Positions 1 through 48,495 of a stretch of 64,000 nt of DNA are shown here, piece after piece (within the stretch, counting starts at the first letter, position 1; every line of letters begins with the position of its first letter). The DNA comes from Escherichia phage dhaeg: sequence record MN850609.1. One strand, 5' to 3'. The notes beneath the pieces were generated by a model. The model was not told the origin of the DNA. It did not search any database and worked only from the letters and a program-made list of their open reading frames with translations. The translations under genes and the position numbers were made by a program.

Positions 1-30
1 TGCTTCGGCGATCAGTTGTTCTTTAAGCAT
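1..30 (-). CDS. 22: Prohead scaffold protein gp22, N-terminal fragment; the gene continues beyond the window edge
   Basis: Reverse complement of 1-30 reads ATG..MLKEQLIAEA, matching the T4 gp22 N-terminus. Position downstream of gene 21 fits T4 order. Confidence 0.55.
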   Translation of the reverse strand, partial: MLKEQLIAEA

Positions 31-57
31 TTTGTAGTCCTGTTGTTTAGATAATAA

Positions 58-65
58 TATTTATA
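58..65 (-). promoter_or_regulatory. Late promoter for gene 22
   Basis: TATAAATA on the minus strand overlapping the gene 21 stop, about 28 nt upstream of the gene 22 ATG. Confidence 0.5.
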
Positions 66-696
66 ACGCTTTTTTCATGGCCTCTGCGAGAGCCATAAAG
101 GCGTCATCGGCACTGGTATCGGTATCTACCGTTTGTGATTCTGTAATTTGTTTAGGAGTTACATAAGCATCAGGAGCAGATGGACCCCATACTGCATCAA
201 CACCGACGGTTAATTTATAACCTTCGTTTACACGCTTATATCCTTTATTGGTTTCAGTTAAAGAACCTAGACCACGAGAACTAACACCAGGCACCCAACC
301 GGCTCTAATATTAGCAGCTAGTTTATCACCAGGACCATGGTCGCCTTCAATAATACGAGCACGTCCATAAACGTCATTACCTTTCCACCACATATCTTCA
401 ATAATAATAGCGGCTTGCATAGGGTCGACGTTAGCACGAGGCGGATGATTTAATTCTCCTAAAGCTTGTTTAGTAGCAACCTGTTCTGCCATATAATCAG
501 CAACAGCTTTTTCCAAAATAGGTTTTGGATAAAGGCGTTTATTACGGTTAACCACTTCGGCTTGCATGAATATGCCTTCTATATAAAGGCCCGGGGCAAG
601 TCCAGAATCTTTTCCATCATGAGATTCCAACATCGGAACCCCATCGATAATTTCACCTGGTTGTCCCCAATGTTCGATGAGCAATTCAGGTTTCAT
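61..696 (-). CDS. 21: Prohead core protease gp21
   Basis: 211 aa. N-terminus ..LLIEHWGQPGEIIDGVPMLESHDGKD.. matches T4 gp21. Lies in the 20-67-68-21-22 order. Confidence 0.9.
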   Translation of the reverse strand: MKPELLIEHWGQPGEIIDGVPMLESHDGKDSGLAPGLYIEGIFMQAEVVNRNKRLYPKPILEKAVADYMAEQVATKQALGELNHPPRANVDPMQAAIIIEDMWWKGNDVYGRARIIEGDHGPGDKLAANIRAGWVPGVSSRGLGSLTETNKGYKRVNEGYKLTVGVDAVWGPSAPDAYVTPKQITESQTVDTDTSADDAFMALAEAMKKAL

Positions 697-1124
697 TAGT
701 TAAGTCCAAAGGCTTTACGTTTAGAACGAGCTTTCTTACGCTTACGTTCAGCACGTACTTGAGTAGACGGGTTAGCACGTTTGGTTTTAGACGCTTTGCG
801 AGCAATCTGACGGCGTTTTGCTTTAGACAACCCAGTCGTTTGATAAGCGTTGCGTTGACGGGTTTTAATATCTTTAGTACGAGTAAGCTCACCTTTAGAA
901 GAGACGTGCTTAACGATAAATTCGTTAAGAGCCATATTTTCATTCAAAGAGGCAATGGCGATAGCTGTATCGATATCACCATCAGCAATCATGTTCTCTA
1001 CAAGATTATTTATATCGCTTTTCTCGAGGGCTTCAGAAAGAGTAGCAAAACGTCCCTGTGCTTCTGGAATTTTGGCCTCTACGCTTTCTAGAGTTAATTC
1101 GTAATCATCAGGGATAAGGAACAT
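696..1124 (-). CDS. 68: Prohead core protein gp68
   Basis: 142 aa with a basic C-terminus. Position between 67 and 21 as in T4. Confidence 0.65.
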
Positions 1125-1402
1125 TATTCGTCGTCCTCGTCTTCATCATCATCGCCGTCATCACCTTCATCCGCATCGTCAGATTCTTTTTTGTCTTTCT
1201 TATCTGCTTTATCGGATTTTTCGTCTTTATCTTCGTCTTCGTCATCTTCGTCGGCTTCTTCGCCTTCAATCATAACGGAGCGAGCAATTTCTGCTTTACG
1301 GGCTTCAATCAAAGCGGCTACTCGAGATTCGATAAGCGGGGCTGCTGCTTTACGAACTGCTACGAGGTCGTTTGATTTAATAGCTTCGATTAAATCTTCC
1401 AT
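1124..1402 (-). CDS. 67: Prohead core protein gp67 (highly acidic)
   Basis: 92 aa with a poly-D/E C-terminus. Immediately downstream of the portal gene as in T4. Confidence 0.65.
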
Positions 1403-2976
1403 TAGAAATCCTCTTCTTCTTCATCTGGGTTTTGGAAACGAGCCTCTTTAGACTCTTCTTCAATTTGCTTAGCTTCTTGATTAATTTCTTCGTCAGTCAT
1501 CTGAAGGAAATCTTTCATAGCCGTTTGATGTGAAATATACTTACCAATAAATGGTTCAGCCATCGTTAGCATATTGATTCTGCGTTCCATGATTTCCGCA
1601 TCTTTCATTTCACTGAAATAGCTATCACGATTGAACGTAACTTTAATATTATTTATTTCCTTTTCCCACTCATCTTCTGTAATAATCTTTTTAAGAATGA
1701 GGTTTGTTTTTAACGGGTCTAGGAAAATTTCTTCAAATTTGTTTTGTAGCTGGCGAATCCATTTAGCAAATTTCAACTCATCACGAGTGATTGCTGTACC
1801 GGCATCAAACATAACGCCTGAATTAGATTCACTAGGGATACGTGACTCTGGAATACGCAGTGCACGATAAAGTGCTGTGCGGAAATAAAGAACATCATCC
1901 ATATCACTCATACCAGTAGCACCTGGCATTGTATCAACTTCTGTTACCGCTTTACCGTCACGACGTTGCAACCAATAGTCTTCAGTCATAGACATATTAT
2001 GTTGTTGGTTTTTAATTTTACCTGTCGAAGCATCATACACCACACGGTTTTTCATCGTGTTCATGATATGTTGCATTTGTGCTGCAGCCTTACGTGAAGG
2101 CATATTACCTGTATCGATATAAAACACACGACGGTCAGGAGCACGTGTAATACGGTAGATGACCATTGCGTCTTCCATCAATTTAAGCTGGTTTGCAGGC
2201 TTAATAGCACGTTGCAAATAGCCAATGATGTTTTTACCGCAACAATCTAATAATCCGGAATGTGCATAAACTACGGCAGCACGAGGAATTTTAACTTTAG
2301 TCCCGGCTGAATAAATGCGTCCATCAGCGCAATAACTTTCATGGCCTGTGTCGTAAACGAAAAACTCGCGATACCCGTCTACAATTTTAACGCCGTCTTC
2401 CATACGTGTAACGATTTCACGAATATATTGGACTTGGCGCGGGTCTAAGCGTCGAAGCTCTTGTACGCCATCTTTCATTTTTTTAGGGTTTATAATTTTA
2501 TGAAAGAATATTCTCGAGTCTACATACCAACGTTGGAAATGGTCAGTGCCTTTACGTTGGAAATTTAAAAGGTTTAAAACTTCACTAAATTCAGCCAAAA
2601 TTTTATCTTTAATTGATTGACTAAATTCCGTGCCGTCTAAATTCAATGCAACTACTTCTTTATCATCCTCGTAGACAATAGCGTCAGACACAATTTCTTG
2701 AACGGCATTGTCGACTTCATAGTTGTTCATCAAATTACGGTAGGTATCAATGAGTTCCCTGGTGTTTTTAACTTCAGGCTCATTACTACCAAACATTTGT
2801 TGCATAAGAGCATTATAAGGAATATTTTGCTCTTGGGTTTCAATTTCGCGAGCGCCATCATCAAGCTTAGGTGCAGTGACAGACTCTAAATTGTTATTTA
2901 ATTGTTGTTTATATTCTTTTTCGTCTTCATTAGCCCATGGCTTAAGAAAACTTAATATTGTATTAAAGTTTGCCAT
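1402..2976 (-). CDS. 20: Portal vertex protein gp20
   Basis: 524 aa, the same length as T4 gp20. Lies between tail tube and prohead core genes. Confidence 0.88.
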
Positions 2977-3033
2977 TAGAGTCTCCGATGAATGGGATAA
3001 GGAGCCGAAGCTCCTTTATAATTCTATTTATAC

Positions 3034-3537
3034 TCATTCCCACCAATCGATAGCGAACGTAGATTCGAAAGTTTCTACCTCGTTGTTTGAATCCCAATCC
3101 ATCTGGACTTCACCAACGTTAGTAGGCCATAAGCCATAAATTGTAACTTCTTTAGTCACAGTCTTACCATCACGGTGGAACTGTCGAACAATTGCTTGTT
3201 TCTTATATTCTGCAGGTGCAGCACCGGTAATTTCATTGGTCATACCGTGGCAGAGGTTTTGCCAATCGACAATTGCCTGACGGGTGTCATGGGCATCATC
3301 GTTATAAATGGTAATAGTCCAATCATCAAACGTACGGTCGCCAGCTACGTTAATTTTACGGTTCATGTAGCCAACCGGTACTTTTTCTACAATGCCTGCC
3401 GGCATAGGTGCTGCTTTACATTTAAAGCTAAAGTTTTTACCAAGAAATGGAATTTCCACTTCGAAAAGGTTAGGGCGTGCAAAGTCACCTGACTCAAACG
3501 CACGAGTGATATCTGTCAACTCCATGGGATGCCTCAT
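3034..3537 (-). CDS. 19: Tail tube protein gp19
   Basis: 167 aa, immediately downstream of the tail sheath gene. Size and position match T4. Confidence 0.85.
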   Translation of the reverse strand: MRHPMELTDITRAFESGDFARPNLFEVEIPFLGKNFSFKCKAAPMPAGIVEKVPVGYMNRKINVAGDRTFDDWTITIYNDDAHDTRQAIVDWQNLCHGMTNEITGAAPAEYKKQAIVRQFHRDGKTVTKEVTIYGLWPTNVGEVQMDWDSNNEVETFESTFAIDWWE

Positions 3538-3577
3538 AAGTCAGTTCCTGGCCACACCAGGAACGTTCTGATTAATT

Positions 3578-3585
3578 TATTTATA
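3578..3585 (-). promoter_or_regulatory. Late promoter for gene 19
   Basis: TATAAATA on the minus strand about 40 nt upstream of the gp19 ATG. A 7-bp hairpin TTCCTGG/CCAGGAA (3544-3563) lies in the leader. Confidence 0.5.
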
Positions 3586-3710
3586 ACAGTTGATAAATCA
3601 TATTCCTGATAGTTAATCAATCCCAGGCGCAATTCTACGTGATGTACGCTGTAACCAAACCCATGGTATAATGGTTTTAGGTTCTTTATATTACAGCCTG
3701 GGATAATAGA

Positions 3711-5693
3711 TTATACTAAAGGTCCAATCAATTCATCAAAATCAGCACCAGTGCTCGTTGCAACGAAGTTCAACGTGATGTAGTTAATAGAACGAGAAGG
3801 TTTTACGTATATATTAGCAATAAACTCGTTACGGTCGATAACCGCAGGGGTGTTCACTGTAGTATCACAAACCACACGTCCTTCATAAATCCCACCAAGT
3901 GCCTTAATACCATCTAAGTACTGAGAAACTTCCATACGGAAGCTTGAACGAGTGAAGTTATCGTTCAATTCAAACAGTTTATATTTAGAGGCATCACCGA
4001 TATTTTTCTTAAGCATGTTGAACAGACGGCGAACGTTAATGTGGTCCATCGGAGATGGAACTTTAGTTGCAGTCTTATCACCAAACAATACGAAACCATC
4101 ACCACCAGCAAAACCAACAACTGGGTTAATAGCTTCCTGGTACATGCGGTCGCGTTGTGCTTGGCGTGGTTCAATTGCCAATTTCAGAACGTTAAGAATC
4201 TGACCACGGTTATAACCAGCAGGAGACATCCAAGGCTGAGACACATCATCAGTACGTGCACACAAACCAGCCATATCAGCAGCCAGTGGTACCCAACGGT
4301 TTACGTCATTATATTTGTCATACTGATATTTATAGTTACCATCAATAGCAGCATAAGTGGTACTGATGTTCATGTTGTTGGCATCGAAATTACCAGCACC
4401 GGTACGCCAGTCAATAAGGTTATCTACTGCACGAGTCAGTGGAACGTTAACCAACAGTCCTTTAGGAGGAGAAATAAATGCTAAGCAATCCTGACGTTCA
4501 TCAGCAATACTCACAACGTGTTTCTGAACAGTAGAAGCCACTTCGTCGCCTTCACCAGCAACAGCACCGGCAATAAGCAGGTTAATATGGAGTGCTTCAC
4601 GATCGGCAAACAAATCCCAACCTTGCATCAAATCGCCTGCAGTAACTTTATCGTTAGCAGAAACACCGCCCATCAGATTAATGATACCGCTGAAGCCTTT
4701 AGGCCAGTTCAAAGAGGTAGCAAAAATATAGTTGGAAGTACCTTTAGCGAAATAGTCGTCAAGATAAATGTTATTACCGTAAACGTCTTTTTCACCTTCT
4801 TTGGTAGAAAGTACGACAGATTCTACGATAGCGCCATCGCGACGAACAATAATTGCGTATTGGTCATCTGTTTGCGGTCCGTAATTAAATACTGCCTTGG
4901 CAATAGAAGCACGGGTACCACCGCCAGGATAAATATCCAGCATTTTAGAAGAACCAGCATCATAAGCGGCTTTGGAAACGATTTCTACTTCCAGAGTAGA
5001 ACCAATTTCACCGGGATAAAGAGCCACTACGCCTGGCATAGCAAATTTCTTAAGAGAAGCTTGGAATTCAAGAGAAGTAATAGCTTCTTCACTATTCTCT
5101 GCTTCAGTCAAAAGAATACCGGAATCCGTAACAATTTTACCTACGGTAATAGTACCAGAAACACCGGAAGATGCAGAAGTAACTTCAGCGGTCCAAGCTG
5201 GGCCAAGGGTAGGATACTGGTTTAAAGAACGTGCATAAGCAATAATTTTTGCTGACGGAATAAACACGGAAAGAATTTTACCGTCTGTATCTACAGAAGT
5301 CACACGACCTTCAGATTCGACTACAGTTTGGTTATATTTAATATTGATTTTATCGCCTACTGCATAGTTGGAACCGGCCGTAGTAATAGTGGTCTCAATG
5401 TTACCAGCGATAGGAGATGCGTTTTTAGCAAATTCGCGACTAACAACACGAACTGTGCGAAGGTCATTACCATACTGGAGGAAGTTCATACCAGACATAA
5501 AGTAATCTGCTACTTCGTTATTAGGACCTCCAAATAAATCAACCAGTTCAACTTCATTAGTAATCTGAGTTACCTGGAAAGCAGGGCCCCACTGGAATTT
5601 ACCTACCAGCGCTGCACGACCCGTTGCGTTACGAACGACAGTACTCTGTACGGACGTTTCTTTGAGCTCAATGCCCGGTGATAATAAAGCCAT
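3711..5693 (-). CDS. 18: Contractile tail sheath protein gp18
   Basis: 660 aa. Size and position between 17 and 19 match T4. Confidence 0.9.
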   Translation of the reverse strand: MALLSPGIELKETSVQSTVVRNATGRAALVGKFQWGPAFQVTQITNEVELVDLFGGPNNEVADYFMSGMNFLQYGNDLRTVRVVSREFAKNASPIAGNIETTITTAGSNYAVGDKINIKYNQTVVESEGRVTSVDTDGKILSVFIPSAKIIAYARSLNQYPTLGPAWTAEVTSASSGVSGTITVGKIVTDSGILLTEAENSEEAITSLEFQASLKKFAMPGVVALYPGEIGSTLEVEIVSKAAYDAGSSKMLDIYPGGGTRASIAKAVFNYGPQTDDQYAIIVRRDGAIVESVVLSTKEGEKDVYGNNIYLDDYFAKGTSNYIFATSLNWPKGFSGIINLMGGVSANDKVTAGDLMQGWDLFADREALHINLLIAGAVAGEGDEVASTVQKHVVSIADERQDCLAFISPPKGLLVNVPLTRAVDNLIDWRTGAGNFDANNMNISTTYAAIDGNYKYQYDKYNDVNRWVPLAADMAGLCARTDDVSQPWMSPAGYNRGQILNVLKLAIEPRQAQRDRMYQEAINPVVGFAGGDGFVLFGDKTATKVPSPMDHINVRRLFNMLKKNIGDASKYKLFELNDNFTRSSFRMEVSQYLDGIKALGGIYEGRVVCDTTVNTPAVIDRNEFIANIYVKPSRSINYITLNFVATSTGADFDELIGPLV

Positions 5694-5722
5694 TTTGAAT
5701 CCTCTTGGTTATGCTTTATTGT

Positions 5723-8032
<2,310 letters not shown>

Positions 8033-31969: not shown

Positions 31970-32043
31970 GGCCCTGTAGCTGGACGGTCAAGCGAGCGAC
32001 TCATAATCGCTGGATGGTGGTTCGATTCCACCCAGGGCCACCA
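31970..32043 (+). tRNA. tRNA with CAU anticodon (Met, or Ile via lysidine)
   Basis: Manual cloverleaf fold. Acceptor GGCCCTG/CAGGGCC, anticodon stem AGCGA/TCGCT, loop CTCATAA, T-arm GGTGG-TTCGATT-CCACC, encoded CCA. Confidence 0.6.
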
Positions 32044-32047
32044 ATTT

Positions 32048-32122
32048 GGATGTGTAGCTCAGTGGTAGAGCAGTTGACTGTTAATCAATTGGTCCATGGT
32101 TCGAATCCATGCATGTCCGCCA
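32048..32122 (+). tRNA. tRNA-Asn (GUU)
   Basis: Manual fold. D-arm GCTC/GAGC, anticodon stem GTTGA/TCAAT, loop CTGTTAA, T-arm CATGG-TTCGAAT-CCATG, CCA end. The acceptor stem has two G·U pairs. Confidence 0.55.
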
Positions 32123-32126
32123 AATA

Positions 32127-32202
32127 CGAGGCATAGCTCAGAAGGAAGAGCAAGGACCTTCTAAGTCCTGGGTCGTAGGTTCGATCCCTACTGTCTCGAC
32201 CA
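32127..32202 (+). tRNA. tRNA-Arg (UCU)
   Basis: Manual fold. Acceptor CGAGGCA/TGTCTCG, anticodon stem AGGAC/GTCCT, loop CTTCTAA, T-arm GTAGG-TTCGATC-CCTAC, CCA end. Confidence 0.7.
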
Positions 32203-44320: not shown

Positions 44321-44360
44321 GTTTACATCTCCTGTAGACGTGGTACTATAGACCTATCAA
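44321..44360 (+). promoter_or_regulatory. Early promoter cassette for regB
   Basis: GTTTAC-17-TACTAT-AGACCTATCAA. Perfect 10-bp inverted repeat TCTCCTGTAG/CTACAGGAGA. Near-duplicate of the denV cassette. Confidence 0.6.
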
Positions 44361-44377
44361 CTACAGGAGATTACAAA

Positions 44378-44836
44378 ATGTCAGAAATTAATTCAGAAGT
44401 ATTCATCCGCCGCAACAAATTACGTCGTCAGTTCGAAACCGAATTTCGTGAACTTAACGCGTCCATCAAAAAAGCCGCCATTAAGAGCGGTGTCCCAGCT
44501 TTCTTTATTAAGTACTCTAATCACTTGTTGGACCGTGCTATCCAACGTGAAATTGACGAAAAATATGTTTTCTCTTTGTTCAAGAAGCTCCATAATCATG
44601 TTAAAGAAATCCATGAATTTTTAATCCAGGAGCCTCTTCCTGACATAGAATCTGAAATTGTCCCAGGTAAAGTGTATCGTCCACTGCGTCTCGAGATTAC
44701 CGATAAAACCTTATGGTTGGGTATGACCGTAGATCGTAAACATCCTGATAAAGGATATTCATTAAAATGTCGTATGGCATTTGTTAATTCTAAACGTTTA
44801 GAAGGTAAAACCAGCACGAAAGTAATCTATCTTTAA
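44378..44836 (+). CDS. regB: RegB site-specific endoribonuclease (cleaves GGAG in early mRNA Shine-Dalgarno sites)
   Basis: 152 aa. VFIRRNKLRR.FE.EFR...HLLDRAIQREIDE.YVF..RLEITD..LWLG matches T4 RegB. Confidence 0.85.
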   Translation: MSEINSEVFIRRNKLRRQFETEFRELNASIKKAAIKSGVPAFFIKYSNHLLDRAIQREIDEKYVFSLFKKLHNHVKEIHEFLIQEPLPDIESEIVPGKVYRPLRLEITDKTLWLGMTVDRKHPDKGYSLKCRMAFVNSKRLEGKTSTKVIYL

Positions 44837-44848
44837 TAATGAGGTCTC

Positions 44849-45388
44849 ATGAAAAAAGTATTAGCCACTTTACTATTGACAGTTAGTATGTCTGCCTATA
44901 GCGTAGAGCCTACTTTCAGTAATGAACAACTCGATAATTTACATTATGCGTATGCTTTCGGTGAACAATACCAAAAGTCGGGAAAGTTCAAAGAAAACCC
45001 TAATCAAAAAGGATTAGGATATATAATGGCCGGATTATTATGGCAGGAATCATCTGCTGGAATTAATCAAGGTTTAAATAAAGATAAGCACCATGCTTAT
45101 GGCATGTTCCAAAATTACTTGCCTACGTTAAGAAGTCGTGTTCAACAGGTAGGTTGGAAGATGTCAGACAAAGAAATAATTCGCATGGTCCAAAAACGAC
45201 AGAACAGTGCCTCTTGGGCCTACATTGAGCTGTCTTATTGGATTGATGTTCACAAAGGTGACCTGAGAAAAGCGATTGCTTCTTATAATGCGGGCTGGAA
45301 TGTCAAAGCAGGCAGTAAATATGCTTCCGAAGTTCTAGAAAAGGCCAATTACCTAAAATCTAAAAAGATGTTTGAGGCGGTATATTAA
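44849..45388 (+). CDS. Secreted protein, possible lytic transglycosylase-like
   Basis: 179 aa. N-terminal signal peptide MKKVLATLLLTVSMSAYS. Position equivalent to the T4 vs-region ORFs. Confidence 0.4.
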   Translation: MKKVLATLLLTVSMSAYSVEPTFSNEQLDNLHYAYAFGEQYQKSGKFKENPNQKGLGYIMAGLLWQESSAGINQGLNKDKHHAYGMFQNYLPTLRSRVQQVGWKMSDKEIIRMVQKRQNSASWAYIELSYWIDVHKGDLRKAIASYNAGWNVKAGSKYASEVLEKANYLKSKKMFEAVY

Positions 45389-45745
45389 ATGATTAAACAG
45401 ATGACTATAGCGCTTATGTTGATTGCTCCGGGAGTATTAGCATCACAGGTTGATGATACAAATAATTCAATTGTCGAGTATGCCACCCGTACAGCAAAAG
45501 ATTATTGTCATCCGAGTAATACTGAATGTGTTATTGAATTCAGTTCAAAAATAACAGCTGCTTTTAAAGATGGACAGAACGACGTCGAGCATCGCCGAAT
45601 GAAAGAGAAAACTCTTTCTAAAAGATACGAGCAACGTCTAAACGTTACTGAATGTGTTCCGTCTGATAAAAAGTACAAAGAAATGTGCGCGTCTATGGTA
45701 GACAGACTCGTTGACTCTTACAACCGAGGGCTAAACTCTAAATGA
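45389..45745 (+). CDS. Secreted hypothetical protein
   Basis: 118 aa with a signal peptide. Position and size similar to T4 vs (115 aa), but no sequence match asserted. Confidence 0.4.
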   Translation: MIKQMTIALMLIAPGVLASQVDDTNNSIVEYATRTAKDYCHPSNTECVIEFSSKITAAFKDGQNDVEHRRMKEKTLSKRYEQRLNVTECVPSDKKYKEMCASMVDRLVDSYNRGLNSK

Positions 45746-46221
45746 TTATTGATTATATTAAGGGCGATATCGTCGCCCTGTTTCTTCAAGGTAATATTAT
45801 TGCACACGGGTGCAACTGTTTTCATACTATGGGTTCAGGTGTGGCTGGTCAATTAGCAAAGGCCTATCCTAAAATATTAGAAATTGATAAGACCACTACT
45901 GAATATGGTTCTCGTGATAAATTGGGTGATATGTCTATTGTTTTTAAACATAAGCCTAATGGATTTGCAATGTGCTATAATTTATACACCCAATACGAAC
46001 CAGGCCCTAATCTTGATTACGGTGCTTTAGTAAACTGTATGATAGAATTAAATCTACAAGCAAATGACCTTTTGTTTAAACCAAGAATTTATATTCCTCG
46101 CATTGGTTGTGGTATTGCTGGTGGTGATTGGGACAAGGTTTCTAAATTAATCGACATGTTTACTCCTGATATTGATTTAATAGTGGTGGATTATGAAAGC
46201 ACATTACCCACATCCGTTTGA
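45742..46221 (+). CDS. Macro-domain (ADP-ribose binding/processing) protein
   Basis: 159 aa. IAHGCNCFHTMGSGVAGQL and IGCGIAGGDWDKV correspond to the two Gly-rich macro-domain motifs. Confidence 0.65.
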   Translation: MIIDYIKGDIVALFLQGNIIAHGCNCFHTMGSGVAGQLAKAYPKILEIDKTTTEYGSRDKLGDMSIVFKHKPNGFAMCYNLYTQYEPGPNLDYGALVNCMIELNLQANDLLFKPRIYIPRIGCGIAGGDWDKVSKLIDMFTPDIDLIVVDYESTLPTSV

Positions 46222-46405
46222 CCCTAAAAATAAAGCTGAAATTATTCGGCGCTGGACTGAAACTCGAGTAACCAAATGCCCTATAAAAAGTCAGCATAAC
46301 ACCGATAAATGGTATATTGGTGAATATGTTGAATATACTTTTATAGATAAAAATAAACGTAAACAGCATGTAGAAGAATATTGCTTAAAGGTACAATGGT
46401 TATGA
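46193..46405 (+). CDS. Hypothetical protein
   Basis: 70 aa. Overlaps the macro gene end. Confidence 0.35.
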   Translation: MKAHYPHPFDPKNKAEIIRRWTETRVTKCPIKSQHNTDKWYIGEYVEYTFIDKNKRKQHVEEYCLKVQWL

Positions 46406-46608
46406 GCCAAGCCCGAATTCTTAAAACAGCCAAATGTGAAAAATGCGAATGGCCGGTAATCGCAGCTTTATGCAACGATGAAATGAATTGCGAATATGAT
46501 TACTGGTGGTACTGTTCTAATAAAGGATGTTCTAATCATAAAGGTGAAGGTTTTCATTCTGGTTATTGCGAACATCCTAAATTTGTGCGATATGGTGAAC
46601 CTAAATGA
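46396..46608 (+). CDS. Cys-rich putative zinc-binding small protein
   Basis: About 70 aa. CEKCEW...CNDEMNCEY...CSNKGCSNH...YCEHP. Confidence 0.4.
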   Translation: MVMSQARILKTAKCEKCEWPVIAALCNDEMNCEYDYWWYCSNKGCSNHKGEGFHSGYCEHPKFVRYGEPK

Positions 46609-46790
46609 GTTTGAGTAAAGAACAGAAAGACAAATTGTTTGAGCTTATCCATGAGCTTTTGGATGAACATGCCGAAGCAAACGCTTTTTACGATGAATAT
46701 GGCCCGATAGATGCCGACCATCAGGAAGAATTTGCTAATCGATTTGATGAGAAAGAAAACGAATTAATTGCTTATGTGAATAGTCTTTAA
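46605..46790 (+). CDS. Small acidic hypothetical protein
   Basis: 61 aa, overlap-coupled. Confidence 0.35.
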   Translation: MSLSKEQKDKLFELIHELLDEHAEANAFYDEYGPIDADHQEEFANRFDEKENELIAYVNSL

Positions 46791-46799
46791 GAAGGTAAT

Positions 46800-47372
46800 A
46801 TGGCTCAACTTTATTTTCACTATGCGGCAATGAACTCAGGTAAGACAGCTTCATTGCTAACGGCGGCTCATAACTACAAAGAACGTGGTATGGGCGTGCT
46901 CCTTTTAAAGCCTGCGATAGACAATAGAGAATCAAGCCATACCATTTCGTCTCGTATAGGGATTAGTCAAGAGGCTAATGCAGTGACTCCGGATATGGAC
47001 CTATACGAGTTCTATCGTTGGGCTGAATCTCAAAAAGATATCCACTGTGTGTTTGTGGATGAAGCACAGTTCTTAGAACCTGCACAGATAAAACAACTGG
47101 CAAAGATAGTAGACAATTATAATGTTCCAGTTATGTGTTATGGACTAAGAACTGATTTTCAGGGTAAACTGTTTCCTGGTTCTGCCGAATTACTCGCTAC
47201 GGCAGATAAACTCGTTGAGTACAAAGGTGTGTGCCATTGTGGCCGTAAAGCTACTATGACTGCTAGGGTCCAAGATGGTATCGCAATTAAGGACGGAGCC
47301 CAAGTTTCTATAGGTGGCAACGATTCTTACGTGTCATTGTGCAGGAAGCACTGGATAGAAATAACGAGTTGA
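46800..47372 (+). CDS. tk: Thymidine kinase
   Basis: 190 aa. P-loop NSGKTASLL. C-terminal zinc-ribbon Cys pairs (CHCGRKA...CRKH). Confidence 0.9.
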   Translation: MAQLYFHYAAMNSGKTASLLTAAHNYKERGMGVLLLKPAIDNRESSHTISSRIGISQEANAVTPDMDLYEFYRWAESQKDIHCVFVDEAQFLEPAQIKQLAKIVDNYNVPVMCYGLRTDFQGKLFPGSAELLATADKLVEYKGVCHCGRKATMTARVQDGIAIKDGAQVSIGGNDSYVSLCRKHWIEITS

Positions 47373-48416: not shown

Positions 48417-48446
48417 CAAAGGTCTCACTTCGGTGGGACCTTTTTT
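48417..48446 (+). terminator. Intrinsic terminator
   Basis: GGTCTCAC-ttcg-GTGGGACC + T6. Confidence 0.65.
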
Positions 48447-48455
48447 CGTTTTAGT

Positions 48456-48495
48456 GTTTACATCCTCTAGGAACGTGATACTATAGACCTATCAA
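48456..48495 (+). promoter_or_regulatory. Early promoter cassette
   Basis: GTTTAC-17-TACTAT-AGACCTATCAA, then CTAATGAGGAG. Confidence 0.55.

Follow-up and report, generated by a model that had tools for sequence, protein, structure and literature searches.

A Dhakavirus orthologue of T4 Tk.4 (AdfM): a stand-alone ALC1-like macrodomain with a probable role in escape from DarTG2

The tk.4 gene and its macrodomain

Escherichia phage dhaeg (sequence record MN850609.1) carries, in the 64,000-nucleotide stretch of DNA analysed here (the window), a gene for a small, stand-alone macrodomain protein. The open reading frame (ORF) occupies positions 45742 to 46221 of the + strand, starts with ATG, and encodes 159 amino acids plus a stop codon; Pfam finds a single macro domain in it. 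An earlier sequence-only reading had proposed a 159-amino-acid protein of this kind at these positions, and both its coordinates and its protein sequence agree exactly with the ORF list. The gene is tk.4, the Dhakavirus (JS98-type) orthologue of the T4 gene recently renamed adfM. Its product is likely to be an AdfM-type, ALC1-like macrodomain hydrolase, one that reverses the ADP-ribosylation of thymine at N3 in single-stranded DNA by host DarT2, using chemistry of the type described for SCO6735 of Streptomyces coelicolor, and so allows the phage to escape the DarTG2 defence.

The region is 97% identical in nucleotide sequence to Escherichia phage JS98 (Dhakavirus, Tevenvirinae), where gp104 is annotated tk.4, ‘phosphatase; contains A1pp phosphatase motif’. 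T4 Tk.4 and the window protein are 57% identical over 155 of 155 residues, without gaps (expectation value, E, 5e-69), and their genes occupy the same place: the order in T4 is regB-vs.1-vs-tk.4-tk.3-tk.2-tk.1-tk, with tk.4 between vs and tk.3 there too. Between tk.4 and its JS98 counterpart, 17 codons differ synonymously and 2 non-synonymously, which points to purifying selection. Its G + C content, about 0.36, is like that of the neighbouring genes, and comparison with them gives no sign of recent acquisition. Homologues are widespread. They were found by tblastn in 2773 of 50,697 phage records, the hosts being Escherichia, Klebsiella, Salmonella, Pseudomonas, Vibrio, Acinetobacter, Aeromonas and others; according to a 2022 survey, 41% of myoviruses have Macro domains. 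The gene, its macrodomain nature and its counter-defence role are already on record, the A1pp/macro match of tk.4 orthologues having appeared in print in 2006; tk.4 is a gene long annotated and recently characterized.

Several kinds of comparison agree that the protein is a macrodomain. The Pfam profile PF01661 (Macro) matches residues 22–136 over profile positions 2–117 of 118, with 33.7 bits (E 4e-8) against a curated gathering threshold of 22 bits, and PHROG 335, a family labelled ‘phosphatase’, matches at E 7e-71. Structure modelling, proposed as a check in the earlier reading, gave a macro fold: the AlphaFold2 model, built from an 82-sequence alignment of homologues, has a mean predicted local distance difference test score of 94.5 and a predicted template modelling score of 0.89. 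The top Foldseek match to this model in the PDB is human TARG1 (E 1.8e-9; template modelling scores 0.72 and 0.81), followed by BT1257, Poa1p, DarG and ALC1. By profile search the best PDB match is BT1257 (E 1e-19). The closest structures and sequences belong to the ALC1-like class (TARG1, DarG, SCO6735 and Poa1p), and not to the MacroD, viral or PARG classes.

Two Gly-rich motifs had first drawn attention to the protein. Loop 1, HGCNCFHTMGSGVAGQ, is encoded at 45805–45852 (+ strand; residues 22–37), and has H22, G23, N25, C26, G33 and A35 invariant in the 82-sequence alignment. Loop 2, IGCGIAGGDWDKV, is encoded at 46102–46140 (+ strand; residues 121–133), and has G122, G124 and W130 invariant. 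Both align to the ADP-ribose-binding loops of known macrodomains: MGSGVA in loop 1 to MGAGIA of TARG1, and PRIGCGIAGG in loop 2 to PRIGCGL of TARG1, BT1257 and SCO6735. Since the predicted fold is that of a macrodomain and the motifs align in this way, the assignment stands. Between the loops lies the motif NLYTQ (45979–45993, + strand; residues 80–84), which includes the invariant Gln84 (nucleotides 45991–45993).

The catalytic residues of related enzymes can be placed on this framework. N25 (nucleotides 45814–45816) aligns to N27 of SCO6735 and to N23 of the AdfM protein of phage PhiKZ; G124 aligns to G128 of SCO6735, and A126 occupies the position of the catalytic D125 of TARG1. Gln84 aligns to the catalytic Lys of DarG (K80) and of TARG1 (K84), and to Gln85 of SCO6735, according to hhalign against Taq DarG, profile alignment to TARG1 and BT1257, and MAFFT. 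A PDB search for the catalytic-Lys region with the C-terminal 103 residues was uninformative, the last loop alone being aligned; the alignment was decided by profile search and hhalign. Inspection of these residues across the family, also proposed in the earlier reading, found N25, Q84 and G124 invariant in all 82 aligned homologues.

The neighbourhood of tk.4

The gene lies in a tightly packed, co-directional block on the + strand, and is close to regB and tk, as had been noted from the sequence. The block opens with regB (44378–44836; Pfam REGB_T4, E 2e-69), followed by vs.1 (44849–45388) and, directly upstream of tk.4, vs (45389–45745). Beyond tk.4 are tk.3 (46193–46405; DUF7202), a 75-amino-acid zinc-binding ORF (46381–46608; ‘Phage zinc binding domain’, PF23895, E 2e-29), tk.2 (46605–46790) and tk (46800–47372; Pfam TK, E 6e-57). 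The zinc-binding ORF stands between tk.3 and tk.2, and the T4 annotation lists no gene at the equivalent position. Read directly from the sequence, the stop codon of vs and the start codon of tk.4 overlap as ATGA (45742–45745, + strand). The same 4-nucleotide overlap is present in T4, and translational coupling of the two genes is possible. In a preprint describing the HIDEN-SEQ method (10.1101/2025.11.20.689424), no T4 gene was more strongly depleted in minimal medium than vs, the valyl-tRNA synthetase modifier gene.

Transcription probably joins tk.4 to regB, vs.1 and vs. Ahead of regB, a consensus scan found a sigma-70-like promoter match (TTTACA-16-TACTAT with an upstream TG; 44322–44349, + strand), a weakly suggested candidate for the point where transcription of regB, vs.1, vs, tk.4, tk.3 and tk, all co-directional, begins. 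The region has 15 promoter-like matches, against 14.6 in shuffles, which is no excess, and transcription-unit boundaries are for this reason only suggestive. Downstream of the block, the scan found a strong terminator-like hairpin, with an 11-bp stem followed by a T-run (48418–48443, + strand). Directly after it, downstream of an rI.-1-like gene, comes a promoter-like site (48457–48484), and the two probably mark a transcription-unit boundary. Within tk.4 itself, in its first 40 nucleotides, the terminator scan picked up a GC-rich hairpin (45761–45779) with the 8-bp stem AGGGCGAT-ATC-GTCGCCCT. We regard this as incidental: it falls on the conserved codons for KGDIVAL, and a separate repeat search did not report it. 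In phage T2, tk.4 mRNA has been captured together with the host small RNA ArcZ in RIL-seq, and infected cells contain detectable amounts of Tk.4 protein. Elsewhere in the window, at 31970–32202, are three adjacent tRNA genes (Met-CAT, Asn-GTT and Arg-TCT).

The position of tk.4, adjoining vs and near the RNA-processing gene regB, might be taken to mean that its product acts on protein or RNA. It could tune the marks made by the phage's own ADP-ribosyltransferases, Alt, ModA and ModB, or undo those made by host ADP-ribosyltransferases on RNA (as uracil-linked ADP-ribose) or on acidic residues. SCO6735 and TARG1 do also hydrolyse protein-linked ADP-ribose, and uracil-linked ADP-ribose on RNA. 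We think such a role quite improbable, however. The adjacency to regB and vs is not kept outside the T4-like phages (e.g. in rV5, PaP1 and Brizo), and genetic or biochemical evidence for reversal of either kind is lacking for the Tk.4 group. The T4 transferases, moreover, modify arginine, and ALC1-like macrodomains are not known to cleave the arginine linkage.

Escape from DarTG2 and the substrate of Tk.4

DarTG systems block phages by ADP-ribosylating phage DNA. Earlier work found that T4 without adfA and adfN is still resistant to DarTG2, and this predicted a further anti-DarTG2 factor. In the HIDEN-SEQ preprint of November 2025 (10.1101/2025.11.20.689424), a DarTG2-expressing host was used to screen a saturating transposon library of T4, and tk.4 was the single significant hit. 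A clean tk.4 knockout makes T4 DarTG2-sensitive, and the gene was accordingly renamed adfM, for anti-DarT factor Macrodomain; that T4 AdfM removes ADP-ribose from DNA enzymatically is an inference of the preprint's authors. The idea of a counter-defence enzyme, put forward in the sequence-only reading, gains support from this requirement in T4 and from the retention of the active-site residues. A second protein, gp104 of PhiKZ, was independently named AdfM; it removes DarT2-made ADP-ribose from a TNTC oligonucleotide in vitro, and the substitution N23A lowers its activity (Cell Rep 2026, PMC13309987). The paper on it makes no mention of T4, of SCO6735 or of a catalytic lysine.

For the chemistry, the closest guide is SCO6735. 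In cells as well as in vitro, this enzyme outperforms DarG and TARG1 in removing DarT-made thymidine-linked ADP-ribose. The substitution Q85A abolishes its activity, N27S leaves almost none, and G128E impairs it; the mechanism proposed for it is water-mediated, with the Gln positioning the distal ribose. These three residues, N27, Q85 and G128, are aligned with N25, Q84 and G124 of the window protein, all of them invariant, as in a Gln-type enzyme. By analogy, we infer that the window protein catalyses the removal of ADP-ribose from thymidine, with DNA as its substrate. Tk.4 would bind the ADP-ribose that host DarT2 has attached to thymidine N3 in single-stranded phage DNA. Its Gly-rich loops would hold the diphosphate, and Gln84, kept in place by Asn25, would position the distal ribose for water-mediated cleavage. 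Hydrolysis of the C1''-N bond would release ADP-ribose and restore thymine, and on DNA cleared in this way replication could proceed and the phage could escape DarTG2. The chemistry would be of the SCO6735 type, and not lysine-based as in DarG and TARG1.

Tk.4 might instead act without catalysis, as a stoichiometric inhibitor of DarT2, or as a sponge for ADP-ribose-derived signals such as the gcADPR and His-ADPR of Thoeris. Macro domains do bind derivatives of ADP-ribose (ADPR), and those of ThsA bind His-ADPR; DarG neutralizes DarT also by protein–protein contact, and reports on T4 Tk.4 describe no catalytic mutant. The part of DarG that binds DarT is a separate C-terminal domain, however, and it is absent from the 159-residue window protein. 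N25, Q84 and G124 are strictly invariant, moreover, in homologues down to 38% identity, as is expected of an enzyme. We consider non-catalytic action very unlikely indeed.

Several points weigh against the hydrolysis of thymidine-linked ADP-ribose as the function of the window protein. The DarTG2 phenotype is known for T4 alone, and not for any Dhakavirus, and the T4 evidence comes from one preprint and is genetic, without a catalytic mutant or enzymology. The biochemical analogy is to SCO6735, which is 26% identical, and the Tk.4 group is without the mobile-loop insertion, and its Lys89, that the SCO6735 authors linked to efficient handling of DNA. The family's N-terminal HxCNC motif is most similar to that of a phosphatase, Poa1p. 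And some homologues, at about 38% identity and with no change in the invariant residues, are encoded in the gene arrangement of a different anti-defence protein, Adpp. As relatives with the same fold and catalytic residues act in that arrangement, fold and residues alone do not fix the substrate.

Adpp was described in a preprint of January 2026 as a Poa1p-like protein of an operon of Vibrio phage Gary, with the same Adps-macro-Namat layout as in Vibrio phage Brizo. It dephosphorylates ADPR-1''-phosphate in vitro, and is needed to overcome aRES, a RES-domain defence. A role of this kind for the window protein would mean that it converts the ADPR-1''-phosphate made by RES-domain NAD+ (nicotinamide adenine dinucleotide) phosphorylases to ADPR, for the rebuilding of NAD+. 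The window protein belongs to the same PHROG as Adpp-type proteins, and Poa1p is among its top matches in both sequence and structure. It shares H22, N25, N80, Q84, G88, P119, G122, G124 and W130 with the macro proteins that accompany NARP1 in Brizo and in Pseudomonas phage PaP1, at 36–38% identity. In Brizo, the homologue lies between genes annotated as ribose-phosphate pyrophosphokinase and nicotinamide phosphoribosyltransferase (3132–6159 of the compared piece), and in PaP1 the same three genes are close together (1–3480 of the compared piece). This is the NARP1-AP layout, occurring in two unrelated phage lineages.

Adpp helps, however, solely by feeding NARP1, together with Adps and Namat. 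tblastn searches with the Adps-like and Namat-like proteins of Brizo and the Namat-like protein of PaP1 found no homologue of Adps or Namat in the window, or in the 170,483-bp genome of Esco_phi_B-01 (OP292222), the closest Dhakavirus relative with a complete genome (best E 0.68 and 3.8). In Esco_phi_B-01, tblastn did recover the macro gene, at E 1e-19 or better, as the sole macro copy. The lack of NARP1 genes in so close a relative makes an Adpp role unlikely for this phage, and we rejected it as the main one. The Gln motif, too, differs: the Tk.4 group has NLYTQ without a loop insertion, and the NARP1-linked proteins have YGQ with an insertion of 4–7 residues. The genetic phenotype of the T4 orthologue, finally, concerns DarTG2. 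The window protein may nonetheless have a side activity on ADPR-1''-phosphate.

A wider generalization can be offered, although we hold it tentatively and think it rather unlikely. The PHROG 335 family might have a single Asn/Gln active site able to break two C1'' bonds, that of thymine-N3-linked ADP-ribose on DNA and that of ADPR-1''-phosphate, and might deploy it against DarTG2 and aRES, respectively. The short-loop NLYTQ form would act on DNA and the long-loop YGQ form on the small molecule, or Tk.4 would be bifunctional; and Tk.4, as a Gln-type thymidine-ADP-ribose hydrolase without the mobile loop of SCO6735, would be a third mechanistic variant. If this is true, two unrelated defences are countered by one widespread family of phage macrodomains. 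Relatives about 38% identical perform a different anti-defence reaction, so the transfer of annotation within the family (‘phosphatase’ versus ‘anti-DarT’) needs care. Against DarTG systems, T-even phages have layered countermeasures: AdfA, AdfN (for guanine-linked ADP-ribose) and Tk.4/AdfM (for thymine-linked ADP-ribose). Orthology to AdfM predicts that JS98-like therapeutic phages should withstand E. coli that carry DarTG2.

Relation to known macrodomain systems

The window protein is not a DarG antitoxin. The NCBIfam equivalog model for DarG, NF048014, scores 28.3 bits against a cut-off of 250, with model positions 1–142 of 338 matched. The DarG of DarTG2 (PDB 5M3I, 5M31 and 7OMU) has its catalytic Lys in the motif FPTKxHW (K80 in Taq DarG), whereas hhalign and the alignments place Gln84 there in the window protein. 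DarG has, in addition, a C-terminal DarT-binding domain and is encoded beside darT. Neither that domain nor an adjacent darT is present at the tk.4 locus, where a single 159-residue domain is flanked by vs and tk.3. Descent from a bacterial orphan antitoxin was also considered, and two homologues examined for it gave no support: the one from Pelagimonas (P0082) is encoded on a chromosome, by itself and without a DarT neighbour, and the other (P0088) is in a large phage contig. P0088, which is 43% identical, lies about 4 kb downstream of a gene for Acb5 (anti-CBASS) in this contig of more than 100 kb (1541–1888 and 6001–6447 of the contig piece), which hints at an anti-defence gene neighbourhood.

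TARG1 (OARD1), the first Foldseek match, resembles DarG in removing ADP-ribose from thymidine, but its catalytic dyad, K84/D125, is replaced by Q84/A126 in the window protein. SCO6735 and BT1257 are stand-alone ALC1-like macrodomains with the same replacement of Lys by Gln. They are 26–31% identical to the window protein, and differ from it in two loops. Loop 1 is HGCNCF in Tk.4 and HxCNDxGGWGKG in SCO6735 and BT1257. The extended mobile loop that follows the Gln (KDSKGL or TGSKG, 5–6 residues, with Lys89), defined as five residues longer than in DarG and TARG1, corresponds to a gap of 6–7 columns in the window and T4 proteins. Adpp of phage Gary and Poa1p of yeast are also similar. Adpp-type proteins share the PHROG and the invariant residues, and Poa1p the HxCNC motif; Adpp genes differ, however, in being found inside Adps-Namat operons, and the substrate of Adpp is a small molecule, not DNA.

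T4 Tk.4/AdfM is the closest to the window protein of all these, with the same position between vs and tk.3 and the same invariant H22, N25, Q84, G122, G124 and W130. The window protein is 4 residues longer at its C-terminus, and has GCGIAGG in loop 2 where T4 has GAGIGKG. PhiKZ gp104, too, is a stand-alone phage macrodomain that acts against DarTG2, with a conserved Asn, N23, that aligns with N25. It is, however, a close relative of DarG (E 9e-25 to Mtb DarG) with the Lys motif FPTKDNW (FPTKxxW); it is imported into the phage nucleus, and its BLASTP match to the window protein is marginal (E 8e-4 over 33 residues). T4 Tk.4 (4923–5390 of the compared piece) and PhiKZ gp104, which match each other marginally, are non-orthologous macrodomains that share the name AdfM, and T4-type AdfM belongs to a Gln-type, stand-alone lineage related to SCO6735, BT1257 and Adpp, and is not a captured DarG. 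What we add here is modest, a matter of class and naming: AdfM of the T4 type is a Gln-type enzyme, and its PhiKZ namesake is Lys-type and DarG-like.
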